IMG/VR virus record: IMGVR_UViG_2541047728_000014
DNA from: a virus
Taxonomy: Duplodnaviria > Heunggongvirae > Uroviricota > Caudoviricetes
Reading direction: 5' to 3' (one strand)
Length of the DNA stretch: 53,998 nucleotides
The notes under the pieces are model-generated. The model saw only the letters and a program-made list of their open reading frames with translations. It was not told the origin of the DNA and did not search any database. Position 1 is the first letter of the stretch. Each line of letters opens with the position of its first letter. Shown here in pieces: positions 2,870-51,894 of this stretch. Made by a program: the position numbers and the translations under genes.

Positions 2870-3076
2870 TCACACAATACGCATTGTGTTTCGTAATTCA
2901 CCGCGCAGCACCCGCAGTGCATCACGCATTGGTACAAAAACCCGGTTAAATTTTACGTGTTTATATTTCCGCATCAGTGGCGGTGTATACACCTTTGCGT
3001 CGTATACTTCCCACGGATAATAAACGCGCGTATCGTCAACAAACGTTTCAACTGAATAAAAGATTACCCGTATCAT
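2870..3076 (-). CDS. Hypothetical small protein (68 aa)
   Basis: ORF packed in the leftward early operon; no recognisable domain. Confidence 0.45.
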   Translation of the reverse strand: MIRVIFYSVETFVDDTRVYYPWEVYDAKVYTPPLMRKYKHVKFNRVFVPMRDALRVLRGELRNTMRIV

Positions 3077-6268: not shown

Positions 6269-6302
6269 AATGTTATATCCTCCGGTTTTACATTTTGTAT
6301 AT

Positions 6303-7226
6303 TCATTGGCAGCAAACAATCTCTTTAAATGCTTCTTCTACCATGTCGAATACTTCCGGCCTGTAATAAAAAAACTCATTGCTACCATCAAATTTTACAG
6401 GAAAGTTAATTTTATAATTGCTAAAAGCCTTATGCATCGTGTTTTCTAGTTCATGTATATTTTCGGTTGGCCCTTCTAACGTTTTCACGATATGCAAATT
6501 AGGAATTCTAACGCCTGCTTTATGTGCGCTTTTTAATATCTCGTTTCTTCGTTTATTTTCCTGAACACTTACCCCAATTTTCATTTGTGTAGGCACTTCC
6601 AGATCATCAACCATGATGTAAAGTTTGCCATACTCATGACGAAGGAAACCGTATTTCGCGCATTTTGGACAGCCGTACCCGCTTTTAAGGTTGCAAGGCC
6701 TGGCAGACCACTCATGACTACAGATCTTGCAGCGGCACGGGACTTTATCTCTATGGTTCTTAATTTTTCCCAATACTTCAACATAAGTGTTAACTTTGGC
6801 TATATCTGTGATGTGTTCTTCGTGTGTTAATGTCCTTCCTTGTGCGCCTTTTAATATTCCGCATTTCGGGCAACCGCGCCCGCGTTTTAGGTTGCAAGGT
6901 GTAGCCGACCACTCATGACTACAGATATTGCAGCGGCATAATACTTTTGTTTTGTCATTAATAATTTCACCCAACACTTCAATATCAGGATTAACTTTCG
7001 CGATAGCGGCAATATGTTCTTCGTGCGATAACTTCATCTTCCCAGCGCATTTCGGGCAACCGCGCCCGTGTTTTAGGTTGCAAGGTGTAGCCGACCACTC
7101 ATGATCACAAACCTTGCAACGGCATAACACTTTTTTATGATTTCCGGTAATTTCTCCCAGCACTTCAACATCAGGATTAATTTTCGCAATAGCCGCAATT
7201 TGTTCTTCGTGTGTTAACTTGCGCAT
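6303..7226 (-). CDS. Protein with three tandem Cys4 zinc-ribbon repeats and a C-terminal T5orf172/GIY-YIG-like domain
   Basis: 307 aa; three ~50-aa repeats LTHEEHIAAIAKVNPD.EVLGEI....KV.CRC.ICSHEWSATPCNLK.G.GCPKC; C-terminal GKLYIMVDDLEVPTQMKIGVS ... GSNEFFYYRPEVF resembles the T5orf172 family (from memory). Confidence 0.6.
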   Translation of the reverse strand: MRKLTHEEQIAAIAKINPDVEVLGEITGNHKKVLCRCKVCDHEWSATPCNLKHGRGCPKCAGKMKLSHEEHIAAIAKVNPDIEVLGEIINDKTKVLCRCNICSHEWSATPCNLKRGRGCPKCGILKGAQGRTLTHEEHITDIAKVNTYVEVLGKIKNHRDKVPCRCKICSHEWSARPCNLKSGYGCPKCAKYGFLRHEYGKLYIMVDDLEVPTQMKIGVSVQENKRRNEILKSAHKAGVRIPNLHIVKTLEGPTENIHELENTMHKAFSNYKINFPVKFDGSNEFFYYRPEVFDMVEEAFKEIVCCQ

Positions 7227-7600: not shown

Positions 7601-8647
7601 TCAAAGAGCGCCAGCGCGCGTATCACGTAGCGTTTTTGGTTTAAGCAGGAAATCAAGTGTCGCAGTGAAGCCATTGCCGAAGTAAAAATCTGAAGCCGTG
7701 TTTTTGAACGTTTCGAAGTAGGCGACAAAGCCGTTAATGCTTTTGTCTTTCAGGTAGTCAGCGAACGCATAGATCTTGCGTTCAAGATCCCGATCCAGTT
7801 CGGCAGGTGGTAACAGGCCGTCAAACGTGCTGTTAAATGCTTCCACCACGTCGGCAGCGTTTACAGTAGCTGATAGCTTGCGCCATTGCTCAGCGTCAGC
7901 CAGATACCCATCGAATTTAGTTACCCGGCAAATGTTGATAGGCTTAGGTGTTCCACCACGGCTGCGCCATTGCGTCAAAGCCCATTCGATTACTAATGTG
8001 ATCTCATCCTCCGTGTATGCCTTACGTGTTTTTGTTTCTGTCAGTAGTTCGATAAATGGCTTAGCATCACGACACTTGCATCCAGCTTTGTCGTTGTAGA
8101 AGGCCAAGCAACGCAATGCCGCTTCGTTTACGCCATCCTGATTGACCGTTTTTTGTCCATTTTCGCTAATACACGAAGTGTATATATCTTTTTCTCTTTC
8201 TTCTTCTACTTCTAATTCATGACCCTTTCCTGACCCGGTCATGACCCTATCATGACCTTTTGGTGTTGGATTGATTAACTTCTCTAATTTTAATTGCTCC
8301 TTCGCTGTGTTTATAGCAGCCCTATAAGCGCTCTTAGAAGTCATTGATTGGTCCAGCCTTTTTAATAACTTTAGGCAAGTTATGTGGCCTTGAGAACATT
8401 CGAACAAACCAATTTCGATGAAGTATTTCATCATTTCTTCTATACGTTTTTCAGTAGATCCGACGTTTCGCGCAATGATTCTCGCGTCATGTCGTAGGTC
8501 AAAATTCAGATTGTGCTGATCTACGTCATAAGTTATTAGTTCGAGGCAATACCAATAAAGCCCGTACCCTTCCAGGCCATAATCTAACAAAACGTTTTGA
8601 AGTTTTTCATCGCGGTTCGCATCGCTGTCATGCTTAAACCACTTCAT
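7601..8647 (-). CDS. Phage replisome organiser / replication initiation protein (Lin1244/DUF4373-like N-terminus)
   Basis: 348 aa; N-terminal MKWFKHDSDANRDEKLQNVLLDYGLEGYGLYWYCLELI matches the conserved N-terminal domain of phage replication initiators; CCGGAGG RBS. Confidence 0.7.
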   Translation of the reverse strand: MKWFKHDSDANRDEKLQNVLLDYGLEGYGLYWYCLELITYDVDQHNLNFDLRHDARIIARNVGSTEKRIEEMMKYFIEIGLFECSQGHITCLKLLKRLDQSMTSKSAYRAAINTAKEQLKLEKLINPTPKGHDRVMTGSGKGHELEVEEEREKDIYTSCISENGQKTVNQDGVNEAALRCLAFYNDKAGCKCRDAKPFIELLTETKTRKAYTEDEITLVIEWALTQWRSRGGTPKPINICRVTKFDGYLADAEQWRKLSATVNAADVVEAFNSTFDGLLPPAELDRDLERKIYAFADYLKDKSINGFVAYFETFKNTASDFYFGNGFTATLDFLLKPKTLRDTRAGAL

Positions 8648-8650
8648 AGA

Positions 8651-8902
8651 TCATCCCTCCGGCAACATCACTACATAGACATCACTGAATGCATCAAGAC
8701 GACAAACAAATCCTTTATCCATTAACGCGGCGAAGGCATCATGTACCGTATGAACAGGAAGTTCACACATTGCGGCTACTTCTTTGCGTGATGCATCATG
8801 TACCCGTCCTTTGTTATCTGCCTTTTCAGCCAGAGCCATTAAGACAAGTTTTTGAATCGGGCTATTAAGTTTTACGTTCCATGCTTTACTAATCATACTC
8901 AT
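8651..8902 (-). CDS. Winged-helix/HTH DNA-binding protein, first gene of the leftward early operon (Cro/CII-position regulator)
   Basis: ORF 8651..8980 opens with TTG; ATG start at MSMISKAWNV preferred (AGGAGA RBS about 8 nt upstream); HTH-like LVLMALAEKADNKGRVHDASRKEVAAMCELPVHTVHDAFAALMDKGFV; transcribed divergently from cI. Confidence 0.55.
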   Translation of the reverse strand: MSMISKAWNVKLNSPIQKLVLMALAEKADNKGRVHDASRKEVAAMCELPVHTVHDAFAALMDKGFVCRLDAFSDVYVVMLPEG

Positions 8903-9093
8903 CGCATTTTCTCCTATGGTTAGAGTGAACGCGCGGGCGGGCATCCCATTAGCATTAGATAGCAGTGACTGACCGCTCAACAGATCCCGCCGTTGCGTGA
9001 TATTTGTTTTTCGCTTCGCAGCGACACCGGATTTTTAAAGAGCATAAGGTAAGTGCCTTTTTGTGCCTTCAGTTATCTTTTTCCTTGCGTCTT

Positions 9094-9177
9094 TGCAAGT
9101 ATGGCCTTACCTTGTCTGCAAGTTTACAAAATGGAATTTTAAGATCAAGGCTTAAAATACACGTTTTGTGACTTGCA
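9094..9177. promoter_or_regulatory. cI / early-operon divergent control region with ~27-bp inverted repeat and TGCAAGT repeats
   Basis: TGCAAGT at about 9094, 9117 and inverted at 9171; arms TGCAAGTTTACAAAATGGAATTTTAAG (9117-9143) and the reverse complement of 9150-9177 are near-identical; candidate leftward promoter TTGATG-16-TATTTT on the minus strand. Confidence 0.5.
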
Positions 9178-9207
9178 TCAAACTTTTTGAGGTTATAGGG
9201 TAGCGAC

Positions 9208-9855
9208 ATGAAAACAAAATGGTATGACTTAGCAAAGCAGCTCATGCGGGCGCAGGGCATGAGCCAGGATTCACTCGCGGATCGTATGGGGATAACTAAA
9301 GGCGGCCTGTCACACTGGCTGAACGGTCGCCGAGAGCCAAATCTTGAAGATATTGCGCGGATTATGCGCGAGCTTGGTCGTCGGCAGTTTACTGTTACAC
9401 ATGATGGCATGGTCATTGATGATTCTGTTTCTAATACACTTCAGGCCGTGCCGCCGCGTGATTTAGGTAGTTACCCGGTTATTGACTGGAAGGACACAGT
9501 AAACAATATGGATGACGCAAGGCGTTCAGCATTACGACACGTTACGACTAGCGTTATTTGTTCAGATGACAGTTACTGGCTGGTTGCCAAAGGTGAATCA
9601 ATGAACGCGCCGCAGGGGTTGAGCATCCCGGCGGGGACGATGATACTTGTGGACCCGCACGCGCCAGCTATTGACGGCAAACTGGTTATAGCCCAGCTTG
9701 AGGAAGGGCAGATACCGACGTTTAAACAGTTGATTATTGATGGAGGTCAAAGGCTTTTACGTTCGCTCAATCCGCTGTATCCGCCAATCCCTATGAATCC
9801 AGAATCAAAAATTATAGGCGTGGTGGTTGATGCGAAGATCGTAAACCTGCCATAA
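9208..9855 (+). CDS. cI: CI-like prophage repressor (HTH plus S24 LexA-like peptidase domain)
   Basis: 215 aa; N-terminal HTH (MSQDSLADRMGITKGGLSHWLNGRREP); C-terminal S24 domain with GESMNAP (Ser) and TFKQL (Lys) dyad. Confidence 0.9.
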   Translation: MKTKWYDLAKQLMRAQGMSQDSLADRMGITKGGLSHWLNGRREPNLEDIARIMRELGRRQFTVTHDGMVIDDSVSNTLQAVPPRDLGSYPVIDWKDTVNNMDDARRSALRHVTTSVICSDDSYWLVAKGESMNAPQGLSIPAGTMILVDPHAPAIDGKLVIAQLEEGQIPTFKQLIIDGGQRLLRSLNPLYPPIPMNPESKIIGVVVDAKIVNLP

Positions 9856-9860
9856 ACATT

Positions 9861-9886
9861 AGCCGCCGAATGGCGGCTTTTCTTTG
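9861..9886 (+). terminator. Rho-independent terminator after cI
   Basis: Hairpin GCCGCC-GAAT-GGCGGC followed by TTTTCTTT directly after the cI stop. Confidence 0.65.
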
Positions 9887-9978
9887 CCTGGAAAACACCA
9901 AAACGTAAACAGAAAACGTTATTTATTATTTAAATATCAATGGCATATAAAATATTTTAAAAAAGTATACAAAATGGA

Positions 9979-10007
9979 TTGACTCGATGTTTTACGGGGC
10001 GTATATT
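9979..10007 (+). promoter_or_regulatory. Candidate pL-like early promoter
   Basis: TTGACT-N17-TATATT (-35 at 9979-9984, -10 at 10002-10007), preceded by an AT-rich tract and a GTATACAAAATGG motif copy; about 350 nt upstream of the N-like gene. Confidence 0.45.
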
Positions 10008-10355: not shown

Positions 10356-10646
10356 ATGAGCGTTACAATTATATATGGTAAATGTGATAGCAAAATGAAT
10401 GCCAGGGAACGCAGAAGGATAAAAAGAGAAAACGAAAGAAAATCATCACCTGCAATCAATAAAACAGACAATGTGGATAAAGCTATTCGATTTGCAAACG
10501 AGGAAAGATGCAAACCAAATAGCATTAAAGAACGTCGCAAAGGATCAGTAAAATGGTATACGGAAAATGAAAGCGGCAGCTACTACCACGCAACGCAACC
10601 ACGCCATTTAGGGGAAAAACCCCTGGATAAAGTCCGCTACCATTAA
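10356..10646 (+). CDS. N-like transcription antiterminator (arginine-rich motif protein)
   Basis: 96-aa basic protein; MNARERRRIKRENERK resembles the arginine-rich motif of lambdoid N proteins; first gene after the candidate pL and nut site. Confidence 0.55.
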   Translation: MSVTIIYGKCDSKMNARERRRIKRENERKSSPAINKTDNVDKAIRFANEERCKPNSIKERRKGSVKWYTENESGSYYHATQPRHLGEKPLDKVRYH

Positions 10647-10676
10647 TACAAAATGTAAACATCCGGAGGTGACATT

Positions 10677-14060: not shown

Positions 14061-14064
14061 CAGC

Positions 14065-14123
14065 GTGATTGCGATCACATAAATATACATTTTGTATTGC
14101 GATCGCATATCCGTTTTGTAAAC
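14065..14123. promoter_or_regulatory. Intergenic regulatory region: CRP-like palindrome plus two TACA/TGTA motif copies
   Basis: GTGATTGCGATCACA (14065-14079); TGCGATCGCA perfect palindrome (14098-14107); TACATTTTGTAT (14086-14097) and CCGTTTTGTAAAC (14111-14123); upstream of the gene starting at 14159. Confidence 0.45.
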
Positions 14124-14158
14124 TGAAATTAAGAGGTTTACGGCACGGAGGAAACAAG

Positions 14159-16876: not shown

Positions 16877-17631
16877 GCAGGGCTAAACATTGGTTAAATA
16901 ATTGGCTTAGAAGTTGGGTGGTGTGGTCGCTGTACGACGGCAGCGGGTACGCCGTTAAAGATTGGGCGGAAGCTGGATATAAGTGCTATTGCTTCAACTA
17001 TGACGGCGCAAATCACGGAGATTATGAAGGCGTTAAAATCATTCATCCAAATATTGAATACGTTAACGTCTGGATTGATAGCCATTTCCTGGTAATGTTC
17101 TCCCCTGAATTGTCTGTTTATCCAGAGCCTGACATTATCCTGGGCTTTCCTCCATGCGACGATCTCGCTGTGTCAGGCGCTCGCTGGTTCGTTGATAAAT
17201 ACAGGAAAGATCCTTGTTTTCAGAATAGGGCGGCAAGAAACGCAATGTTGGTTGAATCTCTGGCTAACATGTATAACGTGCCGTGGATGGTGGAGAATCC
17301 TGTTGGTGTGCTGTCAACGCTATGGCGTAAACCGGATTTTATCTTCAATCCTTGCGCTTACGGTGGCTACCTGCCGGAAGATGACAAGCATCCTGCTTTC
17401 CCTGATGTTTACCCACCGCGCGACGCGTACACGAAGAAAACTTGCATATGGTGCGGCAACGGATTCAGGCAGCCGCTTTTTAGACCTGTAGATCTTAACT
17501 CTGGTGATAACCCTGGGTGGGCGAAAACCGGAGGCAGGACGAAACGAACAAAGATGATCCGCTCACTAACACCGCGTGGCTTTGCCCGTGCTGTATTCCT
17601 GGCTAACCATGACCGCGTTTTATCGGACTGA
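16873..17631 (+). CDS. Truncated C5-cytosine-methyltransferase-like protein (PCD instead of PCQ, no obvious target-recognition domain)
   Basis: 252 aa; motif I-like LYDGSGY, motif IV-like ILGFPPCDDLAVSGARWF, motif VI-like MVENPVG with canonical spacing; CIWCGNG Cys pair near the C-terminus; too short for a canonical C5 MTase. Confidence 0.5.
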   Translation: MSRAKHWLNNWLRSWVVWSLYDGSGYAVKDWAEAGYKCYCFNYDGANHGDYEGVKIIHPNIEYVNVWIDSHFLVMFSPELSVYPEPDIILGFPPCDDLAVSGARWFVDKYRKDPCFQNRAARNAMLVESLANMYNVPWMVENPVGVLSTLWRKPDFIFNPCAYGGYLPEDDKHPAFPDVYPPRDAYTKKTCIWCGNGFRQPLFRPVDLNSGDNPGWAKTGGRTKRTKMIRSLTPRGFARAVFLANHDRVLSD

Positions 17632-17633
17632 AG

Positions 17634-17713
17634 TTTACAAAATGGCGTCATTGCGTGATATGGATCACATAATGGCGCTTTTCGCCTTGTTCTGGTGTAT
17701 CCATTTTGTATAC
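17634..17713. promoter_or_regulatory. Intergenic regulatory region: inverted pair of TTTACAAAATGG motifs flanking a CRP-like palindrome
   Basis: TTTACAAAATGG (17634-17645), GTGATATGGATCACA (17655-17669), CCATTTTGTATAC (17701-17713); between the MTase-like gene and the ninF-like gene. Confidence 0.45.
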
Positions 17714-17790
17714 TTCAAGCAAACAAAATGCTCTTTAAAAATCCGGCAGCGCTGAAATGCGTAGAAATCACCTGAAAAGGAGAGAGCATT

Positions 17791-24160: not shown

Positions 24161-24220
24161 TGTGATCTGTATCACAATGTTTACGAAATGGCATTGTTTC
24201 GGCAGTGCCATTTTGTTATA
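24161..24220. promoter_or_regulatory. Intergenic regulatory region: near-consensus CRP-like palindrome followed by an inverted motif pair
   Basis: AAATGTGATCTGTATCACAAT (palindrome 24161-24176) close to CRP consensus TGTGA-N6-TCACA; then GTTTACGAAATGGCA and TGCCATTTTGTTATATA (8-bp inverted repeat AAATGGCA/TGCCATTT); upstream of the gene starting at 24252. Confidence 0.5.
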
Positions 24221-24251
24221 TATAAGCCACTGAAAGACGGATGGCAAAATC

Positions 24252-24551
24252 ATGAAAAGCGATAAATTCATTGCGTGCTGTTTTGTTGAAGTGCCTAAAG
24301 GTGATGTTTTCTGTAATTATGAATTTAAAGACAGCTTAGGCAGATCTCACATTGTTGTTGGCAAACGTGGTGACTGGTTATATATCACTGATGGAGACAG
24401 GATCTTCACTAAAAACCAGTTGTTAATAATAAAGTCAAGAAATGATGAAATACAGGTCGGTATTATGGGGATCATAAGTTATCACGCCAGTTTATTGTTA
24501 AAACACGATGTGGTAAATAAAGCGCGTAGCTTACCTGGTGCTGAATTTTAA
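24252..24551 (+). CDS. Hypothetical protein (99 aa)
   Basis: ORF after the intergenic regulatory region; GKRGDWLYITDGDRIF is weakly similar to the upstream paralogue family. Confidence 0.5.
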   Translation: MKSDKFIACCFVEVPKGDVFCNYEFKDSLGRSHIVVGKRGDWLYITDGDRIFTKNQLLIIKSRNDEIQVGIMGIISYHASLLLKHDVVNKARSLPGAEF

Positions 24552-37506: not shown

Positions 37507-37889
37507 AGCGCAGCGAAGTATACGACGAAATAAGGGATTGGATTCAATCCCACGGATACGATGAGGGCTATATTTTGCAGGCCCGTTTCTGGAATGAGCG
37601 GAGCAATTCGAATAATGACAGATACATCGTAATCCAGCAAAACGGCGGCGCGACTGGTGAAGAAGCAATAACCCGTGATTATTTCCGCATTCTGGTTATT
37701 TCAGCGCGTAATGATACAAATATCAGTGAAGTGGAAGACCTTGCCGATGCCATCCGTCAAAGTATGTTAACAGAATATAAAACTGATAAAATTACACACA
37801 TGAAGCCAGTTGGCGCTATCCCTGCAATGCAGACAAGAGAAGGGCGCTTTATTTTTACCGTAGCTTTTCAATCCATCATATCCAGATAA
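37503..37889 (+). CDS. Putative tail completion / terminator protein (128 aa)
   Basis: ORF; assigned by position. Confidence 0.45.
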   Translation: MKRSEVYDEIRDWIQSHGYDEGYILQARFWNERSNSNNDRYIVIQQNGGATGEEAITRDYFRILVISARNDTNISEVEDLADAIRQSMLTEYKTDKITHMKPVGAIPAMQTREGRFIFTVAFQSIISR

Positions 37890-39531: not shown

Positions 39532-39834
39532 AATCAACCCCCTGTAATTATTCTGATTTGCTAAATGCTTCCTTTAACTTAGTTATACACGCATATTGTT
39601 TATTTTTTAAGTGCTTTTAACATTTCTTCGATAAGGTCCGCATAGCGTTCATATTCGTTGGGACGGTAGTTTACGTTTCTCATTTTCTTATCCTCTTTCA
39701 CTTCCTCCGGGACATCCGGCCTTCCTGCATCTCTTCTATCTTTCTCTACATCATCTATACAAAACGGTATCGTTAAAATAAAGACATTTTGTATAAAATA
39801 GATACATAGATCACATTTTGCATGAGGTTAAATC

Positions 39835-42177
39835 ATGGCTACCAGTGTAGGCACAATTTATTACGAAGTTGACGCAAAAACAGGACAACTTCTTGTAGCA
39901 CAACGACAGGCAGACCAGGCCTTTGACCGTATAGAGCACGGTGCTAAACAGGCCGATCGCCAGGTAAACACACTGAAAACATCAATCAAAGCACTGACCA
40001 GGGTTATCCATCTGCTAATTGCTGCCGAGGCCGTTAGACAGTTTATGGAAATGGCAGAGCAGGCCAAAATGCTACGCGTCAAAATCAAAATGCTTACAGG
40101 CGACGCGGAATCTGCCGGGCGGGTTTTTGATGGTCTGAAAGAAATATCCAGGGAGACGGGGCAGAGCCTGAAAGATACTGGCGAATTATGGCAAGGCCTG
40201 GCTATCTCACTAAAAAACACCTCCGCTACGGAAGGGCAATTGCTTAACCTGGTTGGCACTATTCAGAAAATGGGTGCATTAGGCGGCGCGTCAGCGGAAC
40301 AGATGTCTAACTCAATGCGTCAATTCCGTCAGTCTATCGACGGCGGTGTTCTTCGTGCCGAAGAATTTAACAGCCTGCTTGAAAATACGCCGACCATCGT
40401 ACAAACAATGGCCCGCCATATGGGATTATCAATGGGCCAGTTCCGCGCCGAAATGCTGGACGGCAAGATAACGGCTGAAAGGATGGTTAACGCAATACAG
40501 GCGGCTACGCAGGAAACAAACGATAAGTTTGCTCAGTTGCCGCGCACATCCGGCATGGCTATCAATGAGCTTAAAGTAGAAATTATGGGCCTTGTTGAGC
40601 AGTTGGATGATCTTTTTGGCGTGTCAGATGGCGTTGTTTCAGCTATCGACTTGATCACGAAAGGCGTTAAAGGGCTTGGCGATGGCGCTAAATTCGCTAA
40701 AACCTGCTTCGACACACTCAAAACGGCTGGTAGCGAATTTATCGACATGTTTGATGATGTGGCTGTTAAGGCTGGAGAGGTGGCAGAGAAGATCATCGCA
40801 ATGGTGACGCCAATCAAGGCGCTAATGGATGGCTATAAATGGATGAAGGAGGTAGTAGGAGAGCAAACCGACGAATATAACAGCAACTACGAGAAGAAAT
40901 ACGGGAAGACCGTTGGCAAGGTCATGCAACTACAGGATGATCTGACCGCAGCAATCCAGGCTACAGAAGAAGCAAGGAAAAATGAACAGAATGCTGCCAA
41001 TGACGGAGCGATTACCGGATTCGACAAGCCAGTAGACAAGCCGAAAAAACAGAAAAAAGAGAAGAAATCGGAAGCTGATCGGCTTGGTGACAAAGGTATA
41101 AGCGTTTCTGATCAGTACAACAAAGACGCCGCCGCCATGCGCAAAGCGTTGGAGAACGGCAAGGCCATTGATGCTGCATTTGCCCAGGGTAAAATCACGC
41201 TCCTTGAGTACCGCGCCGCGCAAAAAGGGATCGGCAAGGAACTGAAAGAAGAATTAGCACAAATTCCGGTAGATGAATTGCGTGATAAATGGTCACAAAT
41301 AGTAAGCCCGATGGATCAGCTAAAAGGCGAAGTTGACCCCATCCAGCAGGCGCAAAATGAATGGGCCATCCGTAAGCAAATGCTTATAGACCTGGGCGCT
41401 ACTGAAGCGCAACAGAAACAGGAATTGTTAGCCTATGAGCAACAGATCCGCGATCTGAAATGGGAACAATGGCAGGCGCAAAGCGACACAAACGGCCTTA
41501 TCGGTGATTGTGTTAATGGCCTTAAAGGCGGAATGAGTAATGCGCTTGTTGGCCTGTTAAACGGCACTCAATCATTGAGTGATGTTTTTGCTAACTTAGG
41601 AAGCAATATACTCGGCAATATCGGTAACAGACTCTCAGACATAGCTGCAAACTGGATAGCAGATCAGATCATGATGGAGACACAAAGCAAGGCCACGCAA
41701 ACAAGTACAACAGCAAGCGCGGTAGCAGCTCAGGGAAGCATTGCTGCGGCGGCGGCCCCAGCAGCGGCGGCAACTGCGGCGTCAACTGGCGGTAGCTGGG
41801 CGGCGGCTGGTTCGGCGGCGCTCACTGCGATCATGTCGCTGGCTACGTCAATTTTCGGCGGCGGTCGCTTTAATGGTGGTAGCGTCATTGGTGGTAATAT
41901 GTACCGCGTAGGGGAACACAACAGGCCGGAGCTATTCCAGACATCTAACGGCAATCAATATATGATCCCTGGCGAGAACGGCAGAGTTATTCCGGGCCGT
42001 GATATTGGCGGCGGTGGCGGTATTAGTATGCCTGTCAGTATCAGCATTCAGACCACGAACGGATTCAGCGACGAAGACAGCCGCAGACTTGAATTAACAA
42101 TGGAACGTGTAGCCATGAAAATGATAACAAGGGAATCTCAAAGACCAGGCGGAATGTTGCAACCTCGCCGCAAATAA
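39835..42177 (+). CDS. Tail tape measure protein
   Basis: 780 aa; long helical protein with Gly/Ala-rich tract (AAAAPAAAATAASTGGSWAAAGSAALTA); position between chaperone and minor tail genes. Confidence 0.85.
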   Translation: MATSVGTIYYEVDAKTGQLLVAQRQADQAFDRIEHGAKQADRQVNTLKTSIKALTRVIHLLIAAEAVRQFMEMAEQAKMLRVKIKMLTGDAESAGRVFDGLKEISRETGQSLKDTGELWQGLAISLKNTSATEGQLLNLVGTIQKMGALGGASAEQMSNSMRQFRQSIDGGVLRAEEFNSLLENTPTIVQTMARHMGLSMGQFRAEMLDGKITAERMVNAIQAATQETNDKFAQLPRTSGMAINELKVEIMGLVEQLDDLFGVSDGVVSAIDLITKGVKGLGDGAKFAKTCFDTLKTAGSEFIDMFDDVAVKAGEVAEKIIAMVTPIKALMDGYKWMKEVVGEQTDEYNSNYEKKYGKTVGKVMQLQDDLTAAIQATEEARKNEQNAANDGAITGFDKPVDKPKKQKKEKKSEADRLGDKGISVSDQYNKDAAAMRKALENGKAIDAAFAQGKITLLEYRAAQKGIGKELKEELAQIPVDELRDKWSQIVSPMDQLKGEVDPIQQAQNEWAIRKQMLIDLGATEAQQKQELLAYEQQIRDLKWEQWQAQSDTNGLIGDCVNGLKGGMSNALVGLLNGTQSLSDVFANLGSNILGNIGNRLSDIAANWIADQIMMETQSKATQTSTTASAVAAQGSIAAAAAPAAAATAASTGGSWAAAGSAALTAIMSLATSIFGGGRFNGGSVIGGNMYRVGEHNRPELFQTSNGNQYMIPGENGRVIPGRDIGGGGGISMPVSISIQTTNGFSDEDSRRLELTMERVAMKMITRESQRPGGMLQPRRK

Positions 42178-42691: not shown

Positions 42692-42760
42692 TTTGGGCCT
42701 CCTTCGTTGGTACTACTTTCTTCTTGCTTTCTATATACATCTTGTTGCGTGCTATGTGAA

Positions 42761-42845
42761 GCCATTTTGTAAACTAGCTATAATCATTGTGACAATGATC
42801 TTATTTTTCGCGTGGAAGCGCGTAAAGATATATACAAAATGTAAC
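42761..42845. promoter_or_regulatory. Divergent control region between the minus-strand cassette and gpM
   Basis: GCCATTTTGTAAAC (42761-42774), TATAAT (42779-42784), 17-bp palindrome ATCATTGTGACAATGAT (about 42783-42799), TATACAAAATGTAAC (42831-42845) 14 nt upstream of the gpM ATG. Confidence 0.5.
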
Positions 42846-42858
42846 TTGTGGGGGTTTT

Positions 42859-44534: not shown

Positions 44535-44663
44535 AACGCACCTCCGCGCCATTTTGTTAACTTCCCCTTCGTTTGAGTAAAATATACATATTGTAAAAAC
44601 CATGATCAATCCATTTTGGTGTGATTTAGCGTGACGCATATCACAAAATGACAAGGTGAGAAA

Positions 44664-51736: not shown

Positions 51737-51850
51737 TGTATTCACCTTACTGTTTGTTTTACTGTCATTTGTTGTTCGTGATGATCCACCCATCCGATGA
51801 GCAAATCACCGCAGAAGCTATCATTTCGTATGTTGATATAGATCAAAAAA

Positions 51851-51894
51851 TACATTATGTATAAGATCAAAGTGTAACGCGGATTACAAAATGG
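51851..51894. promoter_or_regulatory. Divergent control region with TACATTATGTATA and ATTACAAAATGG motif copies
   Basis: TACATTATGTATA (51851-51863) toward the minus-strand secreted-protein gene; ATTACAAAATGG (51883-51894) followed by TAGAAT, 37 nt upstream of the tail-fibre ATG. Confidence 0.4.

Follow-up and report, generated by a model that had tools for sequence, protein, structure and literature searches.

A candidate pair of CI-like repressor sites around an early promoter in the immunity region of an mEp021-like phage

Between a cI-like repressor gene and a divergent early operon, the window (the whole 53,998-nucleotide stretch of viral DNA analyzed, IMG/VR record IMGVR_UViG_2541047728_000014) carries an inverted repeat that had been put forward as the operator/promoter complex of the immunity region. 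The question is whether this repeat is an operator, of what size and for which protein, or whether it serves some other function. From sequence comparison we favor, with a probability of roughly three in four, a reading in which it comprises two CI-like repressor sites bracketing an early promoter, the immunity switch of the mEp021-like group. The genes concerned are the following.

9208-9855, plus strand: cI-like repressor gene, 215 aa, with HTH_3 and Peptidase_S24 domains (Pfam)
8651-8902, minus strand: 83-aa gene, the first of the leftward operon, divergent from cI
7601-8647, minus strand: replication gene, 348 aa, with a Lin1244_N domain and an O-like C-terminal part
9861-9878: terminator, downstream of cI
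Downstream of cI and of the promoter at 9979-10007: N-like gene (phrog_271), erf and ssb

The ORF map and Pfam matches showed a cI-type gene (helix-turn-helix plus S24 autoprotease) divergent from the early operon, and its product matched the lambda repressor 3BDN (E = 1.4e-20); NCBIfam held no informative family for the repressor or its neighbors. At the position of the lambda CI cleavage site, which is Ala-Gly in lambda, the protein has LG (..PRDLGSYPV..). It is 95% identical to Rep021 of mEp021, and the region shares 87.5-92% DNA identity with the mEp021-like ("mEpimmI") temperate coliphages. Several Escherichia coli prophages contain the 311-bp intergenic stretch at 100% identity, and it is present in 35 of 5,426 complete genomes.

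The mEpimmI phages are reported to occur in human gut samples as often as lambdoid phages, to constitute one immunity group and to be mostly not UV inducible; experiments with Rep021 showed that it blocks infection by six of these phages and thus confers the group immunity (PMC11893012). The same paper mentions possible "different operator sequences" without identifying operators or promoters; neither there nor in the GenBank annotation, the two sources covered, are mEpimmI operators defined, and the 2023 nut-site paper (PMID 36795170) may describe promoters. A full-text literature search with the motif sequences returned unrelated primer matches only.

Extent and conservation of the inverted repeat

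The two arms and the sites that we propose within them are located as follows (no strand is assigned to these features).

9117-9143 and 9151-9177: arms of the inverted repeat
9094-9100: third TGCAAGT, inside the predicted transcribed leader
9120-9139: left predicted operator, OR1 equivalent; its 15-mer, AAGTTTACAAAATGG, is 9120-9134
9124-9136: left-site core, TTAC-AAAAT-GGAA, center 9130, -78 from the cI ATG
9135-9158: inner arms and spacer, AATTTTAAG..CTTAAAAT, unconserved except for the -35 element
9156-9174: right predicted operator, OR2 equivalent, a degenerate inverted partner of the 15-mer (9159-9174)
9159-9171: right-site core, ACAC-GTTTT-GTGA, center 9165, -43 from the cI ATG and 35 bp from the left site

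The left arm is TGCAAGTTTACAAAATGGAATTTTAAG, the right arm reads TGCAAGTCACAAAACGTGTATTTTAAG in reverse complement, and 7 nt separate them. Both arms of the 27-bp inverted repeat of the original prediction thus exist, the second beginning at 9151 and not at 9150, but their description as near-identical was overstated: the ungapped arms are complementary at 19 of 27 positions (70%), or at about 22 of 28 columns by our own count when two 1-nt gaps are introduced. As an ungapped repeat, the structure is not beyond chance, since the window has two loci with repeats of at least 19/27 and loops of 3 to 12 nt, and 26% of locally shuffled windows have one or more. The other locus of this kind is GCGCTAAATTCGCTA...TAGCGAATTTATCGAC (40683-40750), within the tape-measure gene. 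As a gapped hairpin, with bulges allowed, the repeat is beyond chance, with a predicted energy of -14.5 kcal/mol against -5.6 ± 1.95 in 200 shuffled sequences (z = -4.56), none of which did equally well. The third TGCAAGT is indeed found at 9094, but the operator role ascribed to it lacks support: the heptamer occurs 9 times in the window against 8.8 expected, and the copy at 9094-9100 is TGCAACT in some relatives.

Conservation was followed in alignments of ten mEpimmI (mEp021-like) phage and prophage sequences, or eleven with one more distant relative. Among the ten, the left-site 15-mer has a single variable position (most relatives have TACAGAATGG, and mEp010 has TACATAATGG), and TTTTGTGACTTG in the right site is invariant in 11 of 11 sequences. 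From left to right, the conserved blocks of the mEpimmI alignment are GCAAGTTTACARAATGG, a central TCAAG and A(C/T)RTTTTGTGACTTG. For their part, the inner segments AATTTTAAG and CTTAAAAT of the window are replaced in relatives by GCTAACAGG, ATTTGCAGG and so on, and the inner TTTTAAG/CTTAAAA complementarity is specific to the lineage of the window.

The hairpin energy is what would favor the view that the repeat acts as a structure, either a DNA cruciform (for example an origin or recombination site) or an RNA hairpin (a terminator or processing site). In the 11 aligned sequences, however, none of the 27 hairpin pairs changed on both sides, the inner pairs were broken in 4 to 10 sequences, and 85.9% of the cells were paired, compared with 85.8% in column shuffles; the repeat is therefore not maintained as a structure. 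Moreover, the stem is A/T rich, no run of T's follows it, and both flanking transcripts are predicted to start outside the hairpin or at its edge, so that we give this view very little credence.

The original prediction also held that the operator is larger than the typical 14 to 17 bp, and this did not survive the comparison. Since only the outer 15 to 17 bp of each arm are conserved, each unit would be of normal operator size, and the lineage-specific inner part together with the lack of any compensatory pair argues against both a selected hairpin and a single large operator. Judged by the alignment, the repeat is better described as two sequence-conserved blocks facing each other than as one 27-bp palindrome. 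The inner TTAAG-N7-CTTAA was considered as a P22-like operator and rejected: the operators of P22 are TNAAG-N4-CTTNA, so that the spacing is wrong, and the element is unconserved in relatives.

The repressor family and its operators

Relatives of the repressor were collected from the protein database and by contig look-ups, and the DNA around seven homologs was examined; a search of the repressor protein against one genome per species gave no match. In homologs of about 40 to 55% identity the recognition helix, ITKGGLSHWLNGRREP, is almost unchanged, following the pattern T-K/Q-G-G/A-x-x-HWLN-x-RRE. The N-terminal domain of the window repressor is about 54% identical to those of ST64T and L C2 and 45% identical to that of VT2-Sakai-type CI (tblastn).

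Near-palindromes of the form (T)ATAC-N5-GTAT(A) were found around the repressor gene in prophages of Citrobacter, Enterobacter, Tatumella and Serratia, in Erwinia phage Midgardsormr38 and in Salmonella phage ST64T, which carries AATACATTTCGTACT, AATACAATATGTGTG and AATACATCTCGTAAT between cro and c2. The outgroup lambdoid prophages and phages with ATAC-N5-GTAT have replication and late-control modules unrelated to those of the window. In four loci these sites numbered 18 in 1,504 flanking intergenic positions, compared with 13 in 36,311 other positions. Relative to the cI ATG, the sites are centered at -75, -42 and -16 in loci L022 to L024 and at -76, -43 and -18 in L019, and a further operator pair, 25 bp apart and downstream of cI, is present in three of four outgroup loci (L019, L022-L024) and in the window. 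Loci L016 to L018, whose repressors are 55% identical, share their gene order with mEpimmI but include an ordinary cro-like gene (HTH_3 in L016), and their intergenic region contains TGCAAGTTTACGAATTGG...CCATTTTGTGACTTGA in the same inverted layout as in the window. The repressor was the sole protein to co-occur with the motif across all loci examined; on this comparison, the motif travels with the repressor and not with the phage.

A Shewanella prophage (L025) has a 39%-identical repressor with the helix TPGGMGHWLNG and, at 2910-3001, half-sites with GTAC and not ATAC (TGTACATTATGTATA, GTACATATCGTACA). Helix and half-site may be covarying in this single example.

In the work on epsilon34, WTACRAWWTGTAT is predicted as the operator of a repressor with an N-terminal domain related to its counterparts in L and VT2-Sakai (PMC2629481). 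Given the homologous N-terminal domain and this predicted operator, the TACAAAATG of the window would correspond to the strong half-site plus the center of that operator type. The left site (TTACAAAATGGAA) agrees with the WTACRAWWTGTAT consensus at 11 of 13 positions and the right site (reverse complement TCACAAAACGTGT) at 10 of 13, by our own count. With a position weight matrix (PWM) built from the outgroups, they scored 9.1 and 9.3 bits, respectively, and the right site of mEp021 scored 12.5 bits. Both are thus moderate-to-weak matches to the palindromic outgroup consensus, at about 9 bits each, and chance alone would be expected to give some 9 sites scoring 8 bits or more in the window. 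Because of these moderate scores, the case for the two sites is built on their conservation, their position and the group-specific 15-mer. The right site also resembles the middle operator of the outgroups, TATACATTTTGTGTC, which is centered at -42.

By inspection, no convincing internal dyad symmetry was found in the 15-mer, which would be unusual for a dimeric CI; only one of its halves is canonical, and it has a strictly conserved ..ATGG for which the operator model does not account. The bare ATAC-N5-GTAT, with one mismatch allowed, was unenriched in the window (27 matches against 20.7 expected). Enrichment appeared only when the A/T-rich center and the flanks were scored with the PWM: the outgroup-only matrix gave 10 sites scoring 14 bits or more in the window, compared with 0.43 in shuffled sequences, and the well-fitting sites elsewhere reached 14 to 20 bits.

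The original prediction had named the 8651-8902 protein, together with CI, as a regulator to be footprinted on the repeat, and the gene occupies the place of cro in lambdoid phages as the first gene of the divergent operon. Its RefSeq annotation as a MarR-type or helix-turn-helix protein would also fit a Cro substitute that acts on the repeat, alone or with CI. However, the first divergent gene of the window resembles no cro but the N-terminal domain of an initiator: its product matched only the N-terminal 85 or so residues (the winged helix) of replication-initiator families (phrog_4617, 1.8e-20, and O-like families). Moreover, the window and mEp021 share the sites but only 34% identity in this protein, and the gene is absent from the motif-bearing outgroup prophages, which have an ordinary cro. 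Binding of the repeat by this protein is thus unlikely, and its action there as a Cro substitute is improbable.

Regarding the replication module, the initiator is apparently split into the 83-aa winged-helix part and the 348-aa protein that follows. This module has been swapped within the group (the 34% identity to mEp021), and the immunity region has been kept.

A CI-like repressor therefore remains the preferred ligand of the two sites. The proposal of an immunity-region operator/promoter complex is backed by the comparison with related phages and prophages, by the association of motif and repressor across loci and by the immunity that the closely related Rep021 confers.

Arrangement of sites and promoters beside the repressor gene

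The promoter elements predicted at the repeat, and the nut element downstream of the leftward one, are the following.

9121-9126, minus strand: predicted -10 of the leftward early promoter, TAAACT, within the left site and invariant in relatives
9143-9148, minus strand: predicted -35 of the same promoter, TTGATC, 16 nt from the -10; TTGACC in some relatives
9032-9044, minus strand: boxA-like TGCTCTTTAAAAA of nutL, in the leader of the leftward transcript; the same sequence is found at 17729-17741 on the plus strand
9173-9201, plus strand: putative PRM-like promoter, TTGCAT (9173-9178)-17-TAGGGT (9196-9201), its -10 ending 6 nt before the ATG

The leftward -35 falls in the "loop" of the inverted repeat, where TCAAG is invariant and the flanking spacer variable. 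The promoters predicted at the repeat match the consensus at 8 of 12 positions, which is under the threshold of the consensus scan, so that they went unreported by it. The leftward promoter is predicted to transcribe through nutL into the replication genes, nutL having been placed upstream of the repressor gene (PMC11893012). An operator-embedded -10 also occurs in outgroups, as in the TTGCCA-17-TATACT of L022. In the PRM-like region, ATAGGGTAGCGA is invariant in relatives, and the cI mRNA is probably leaderless, although the AGGG of TAGGGT could alternatively be a Shine-Dalgarno ribosome-binding site. Every relative has a -10-like hexamer that ends 6 nt before the cI ATG, in the outgroups TATGAT, TATTAT, TATAAT or AATAAT. 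Inspection of the spacer revealed no convincing lambda CII-type TTGC-N6-TTGC or IHF site.

The mechanism that we propose starts from the asymmetry of the sites. Each would consist of a strong half, AAGTWTAC, an A/T-rich center and a weak half, GG.., and it is because of this asymmetry that the two would lie in inverted orientation. The left site (9130) overlaps the -10 and the spacer of the predicted TTGATC-16-TAAACT; since this promoter would transcribe nutL and the replication genes, bound repressor would occlude RNA polymerase there, as at lambda OR1. Lying at about -51 relative to the predicted leftward start and -43 relative to the cI ATG, the right site (9165) would behave like OR2, stabilizing binding to the OR1 equivalent and activating PRM. 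TTGCAT-17-TAGGGT would yield a leaderless cI mRNA from a promoter touched by a repressor dimer centered near -42, an arrangement whose geometry suggests activation. Finally, the same repressor would shut two other nut-bearing early promoters through identical 15-mers. Binding, transcription starts, repression and activation are all steps that we infer from the DNA sequence.

The spacing of 35 bp between the two sites corresponds to about 3.3 helical turns, a poorer phasing than that of the 33 bp of the outgroups. A PWM scan of the window showed no third operator near -16 of cI. With sites at -78 and -43 only, the arrangement would correspond to the OR1 and OR2 of canonical relatives, with the position of OR3 empty.

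In its general layout, the region resembles OR/PR/PRM of lambda: a helix-turn-helix plus S24 repressor is divergent from the early operon, one predicted operator covers the -10 of the predicted early promoter and a second lies near -42/-43 of a probably leaderless cI promoter, operators are also present at the other early promoter, beyond cI, and the promoters have N-type antitermination sites after them. Unlike lambda, the window has two operators and not three, with none over the cI promoter, and no cro gene. Its sites are asymmetric and 35 bp apart, compared with 24 bp in lambda, so that the second does not cover the early -35 as it does in lambda, and there is a third, predicted operator-controlled early promoter at 17631-17715.

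The likeness to epsilon34, L and ST64T, and to VT2-Sakai-type Stx phages, lies in the homologous N-terminal domain of the repressor, the conserved recognition helix and the partial agreement of the two sites with WTACRAWWTGTAT given above. The epsilon34/L/ST64T family, however, has three near-palindromic operators (only predicted in epsilon34) and cro, whereas in the window one half-site is replaced by the conserved GG.., and both OR3 and cro are missing. The window belongs to the same phage group as mEp021, whose Rep021 is the 95%-identical repressor with experimentally demonstrated immunity (PMC11893012).

Further copies of the motif in the window

That the repeat embeds a recurrent motif was confirmed: TACAAAATG is strongly nonrandom, with 15 copies in the window against 0.94 expected, a number reached in none of 100 shuffles. 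The 15-mer AAGTWTACAAAATGG occurs exactly four times, at 9120 (+), 9963 (+), 17631 (+) and 17701-17715 (-), and 22 times with up to three mismatches (4.3 expected). Every exact copy is at an early promoter region, adjoining boxA or a strong sigma-70 promoter, and the four sites keep their position and orientation in mEp021, mEp515, mEp010, RM9245, UMNK88 and PAR, while the spacers vary. The features of the two further early promoter regions are as follows.

9963-10007, plus strand: second early promoter, TTGACT (9979)-17-TATATT (10002-10007), strong in the consensus scan
9963-9977: 15-mer AAGTATACAAAATGG, center 9973, 16.8 bits, ending one base before the -35 TTGACT
9992-10004: weak site TTACGGGGCGTAT, center 9998, 4.5 bits, over the -10 and 25 bp from 9973
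17631-17715, plus strand: third early promoter, predicted, TTGTTC (17687)-16-TATACT (17709-17714)
17631-17645 (plus) and 17701-17715 (minus): inverted 15-mers, just upstream of TGCTCTTTAAAAA
17729-17741, plus strand: boxA of nutR2, TGCTCTTTAAAAA, the same as 9032-9044 in reverse
17654-17669: CRP-like CGTGATATGGATCACA, within the third early promoter region

The exact 15-mer is thus repeated at the second early promoter, in the OL position, beside TTGACT-17-TATATT. Published work describes three nut sites in mEpimmI phages: nutL, nutR1, which precedes the N-like gene, and nutR2, which follows the cytosine methyltransferase gene. Taken together with the copies at the promoters, this suggests that each nut-bearing transcription unit starts beside the motif.

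Since CCATTTTGTAWACT provides the predicted -10 at 9121-9126, 14119-14124 and 17709-17714, the motif might instead be a shared promoter core only (-10 TAWACT plus upstream TTTTG), bound by no repressor, the inverted copy being fortuitous or part of a divergent promoter. This is unlikely, as some copies stand in the opposite orientation ahead of a -35 (9963; 42762) and others are upstream partners without a promoter (17631; 9159-9174), and as the same sequence in the outgroups takes the form of full palindromes in the classic three-operator layout around the CI gene. Taking the copies as candidate repressor sites, we describe below those found outside the early promoters.

The best operator-like site of the window lies inside the rightward early operon (14064-14124): a perfect palindrome, ATATACATTTTGTAT, with its center at 14091 and 19.9 bits. 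It is followed 24 bp later by CCGTTTTGTAAACT (center 14115) and a predicted promoter, TTGCGA-16-TAAACT; the CRP-like CGTGATTGCGATCACA (14064-14079) precedes the predicted start by about 60 bp. The 14091/14115 operator pair is conserved in mEp021 (16546/16570). Upstream of the ORF that starts at 24253, the region 24161-24224 contains a CRP-like TGTGATCTGTATCACA directly followed by ATGTTTACGAAATGG, with an inverted partner, GCCATTTTGTTATAT, 25 bp away, and seems to be a further operator pair that embeds a -10.

Operator-like pairs were also found in each of three divergent regions that separate minus-strand accessory cassettes from tail genes (39753-39797, 42757-42847 and 44544-44599). The centers are at 39763/39788 (25 bp apart), 42766/42838 and 44553/44590, with mEp021 counterparts at 37654/37679, 42052/42125 and 43926/43962, respectively. 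At 42762-42776 the 15-mer stands one base upstream of TTCACA-17-TATATA, a layout like that at 9963.

Three copies of TACAAAATGTAA (6285-6303, 10643-10661 and 42829-42847) fall in the interval from a stop codon to the following ribosome-binding site, as in TACAAAATGTAAAACCGGAGG...ATG. As operators they score 15 to 16 bits, the first two are conserved in mEp021, and they might be roadblocks, internal promoters or module junctions. At 51847-51894, an operator-like AAAATACATTATGTATAAG (18.9 bits, center 51856) is followed 34 bp later by a copy of TACAAAATGG; no counterpart was found in the first 50 kb of mEp021.

GTGAT-N4-ATCACA, which matches the E. coli CRP consensus, is present at 14065, 17655, 24161 and 44631 (GTGAC at 44631), each time adjoining operator-like sites, and GTGA-N6-TCACA has 5 matches in the window against 0.25 expected, which none of 100 shuffles equaled. 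Two of the CRP-like sites lie about 60 bp upstream of predicted starts (those of the 14119-14124 and 17709-17714 promoters), the position of a class I activator. The copy at 17655 is an exact TGTGA-N6-TCACA in UMNK88 and RM9245. This proximity to several motif copies could suggest that the sites are bound by a host factor (CRP, IHF or Fis) and not by a phage protein. Nevertheless, on our own inspection the 15-mer itself matches neither the CRP nor the IHF consensus, the CRP-like sites are sequences separate from it, and the motif co-occurs with one repressor family across genera, all of which makes a host ligand highly improbable.

With the CI-like repressor as the ligand, a broader and tentative picture, which we hold to be possible and no better, is that mEpimmI has a lambda-type switch minus Cro and the third operator, whose repressor would be a genome-wide regulator. 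It would act at five or more operator-bearing promoters (the three nut-linked ones and those near 14082-14124 and 24177-24221), three divergent accessory/tail regions and several intercistronic sites, with CRP sites in four regions. If so, the lysis-lysogeny decision and accessory-gene expression would be coupled to cAMP-CRP. The named sites and promoters are direct targets for footprinting, for immunity engineering and for the study of a CI-type switch without Cro or OR3. Beyond that, such a locus is an expected feature of a temperate phage, and its oddities for specialists are that cro and OR3 are missing, that a third early promoter would be under operator control and that motif copies are numerous genome-wide.

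Dispersal of many motif copies over the genome, several of them intergenic within operons, recalls the stoperators of L5 gp71. L5 stoperators are strictly asymmetric, orientation dependent and bound by a monomer without an S24 domain; in contrast, the dispersed copies of the window are pseudo-palindromic, of mixed orientation and mostly at predicted promoters. They follow no L5-type orientation rule: copies in the leftward operon lie on both strands, at 2195 (+), 5151 (+) and 6291 (-), and the best dispersed copies are palindromic.
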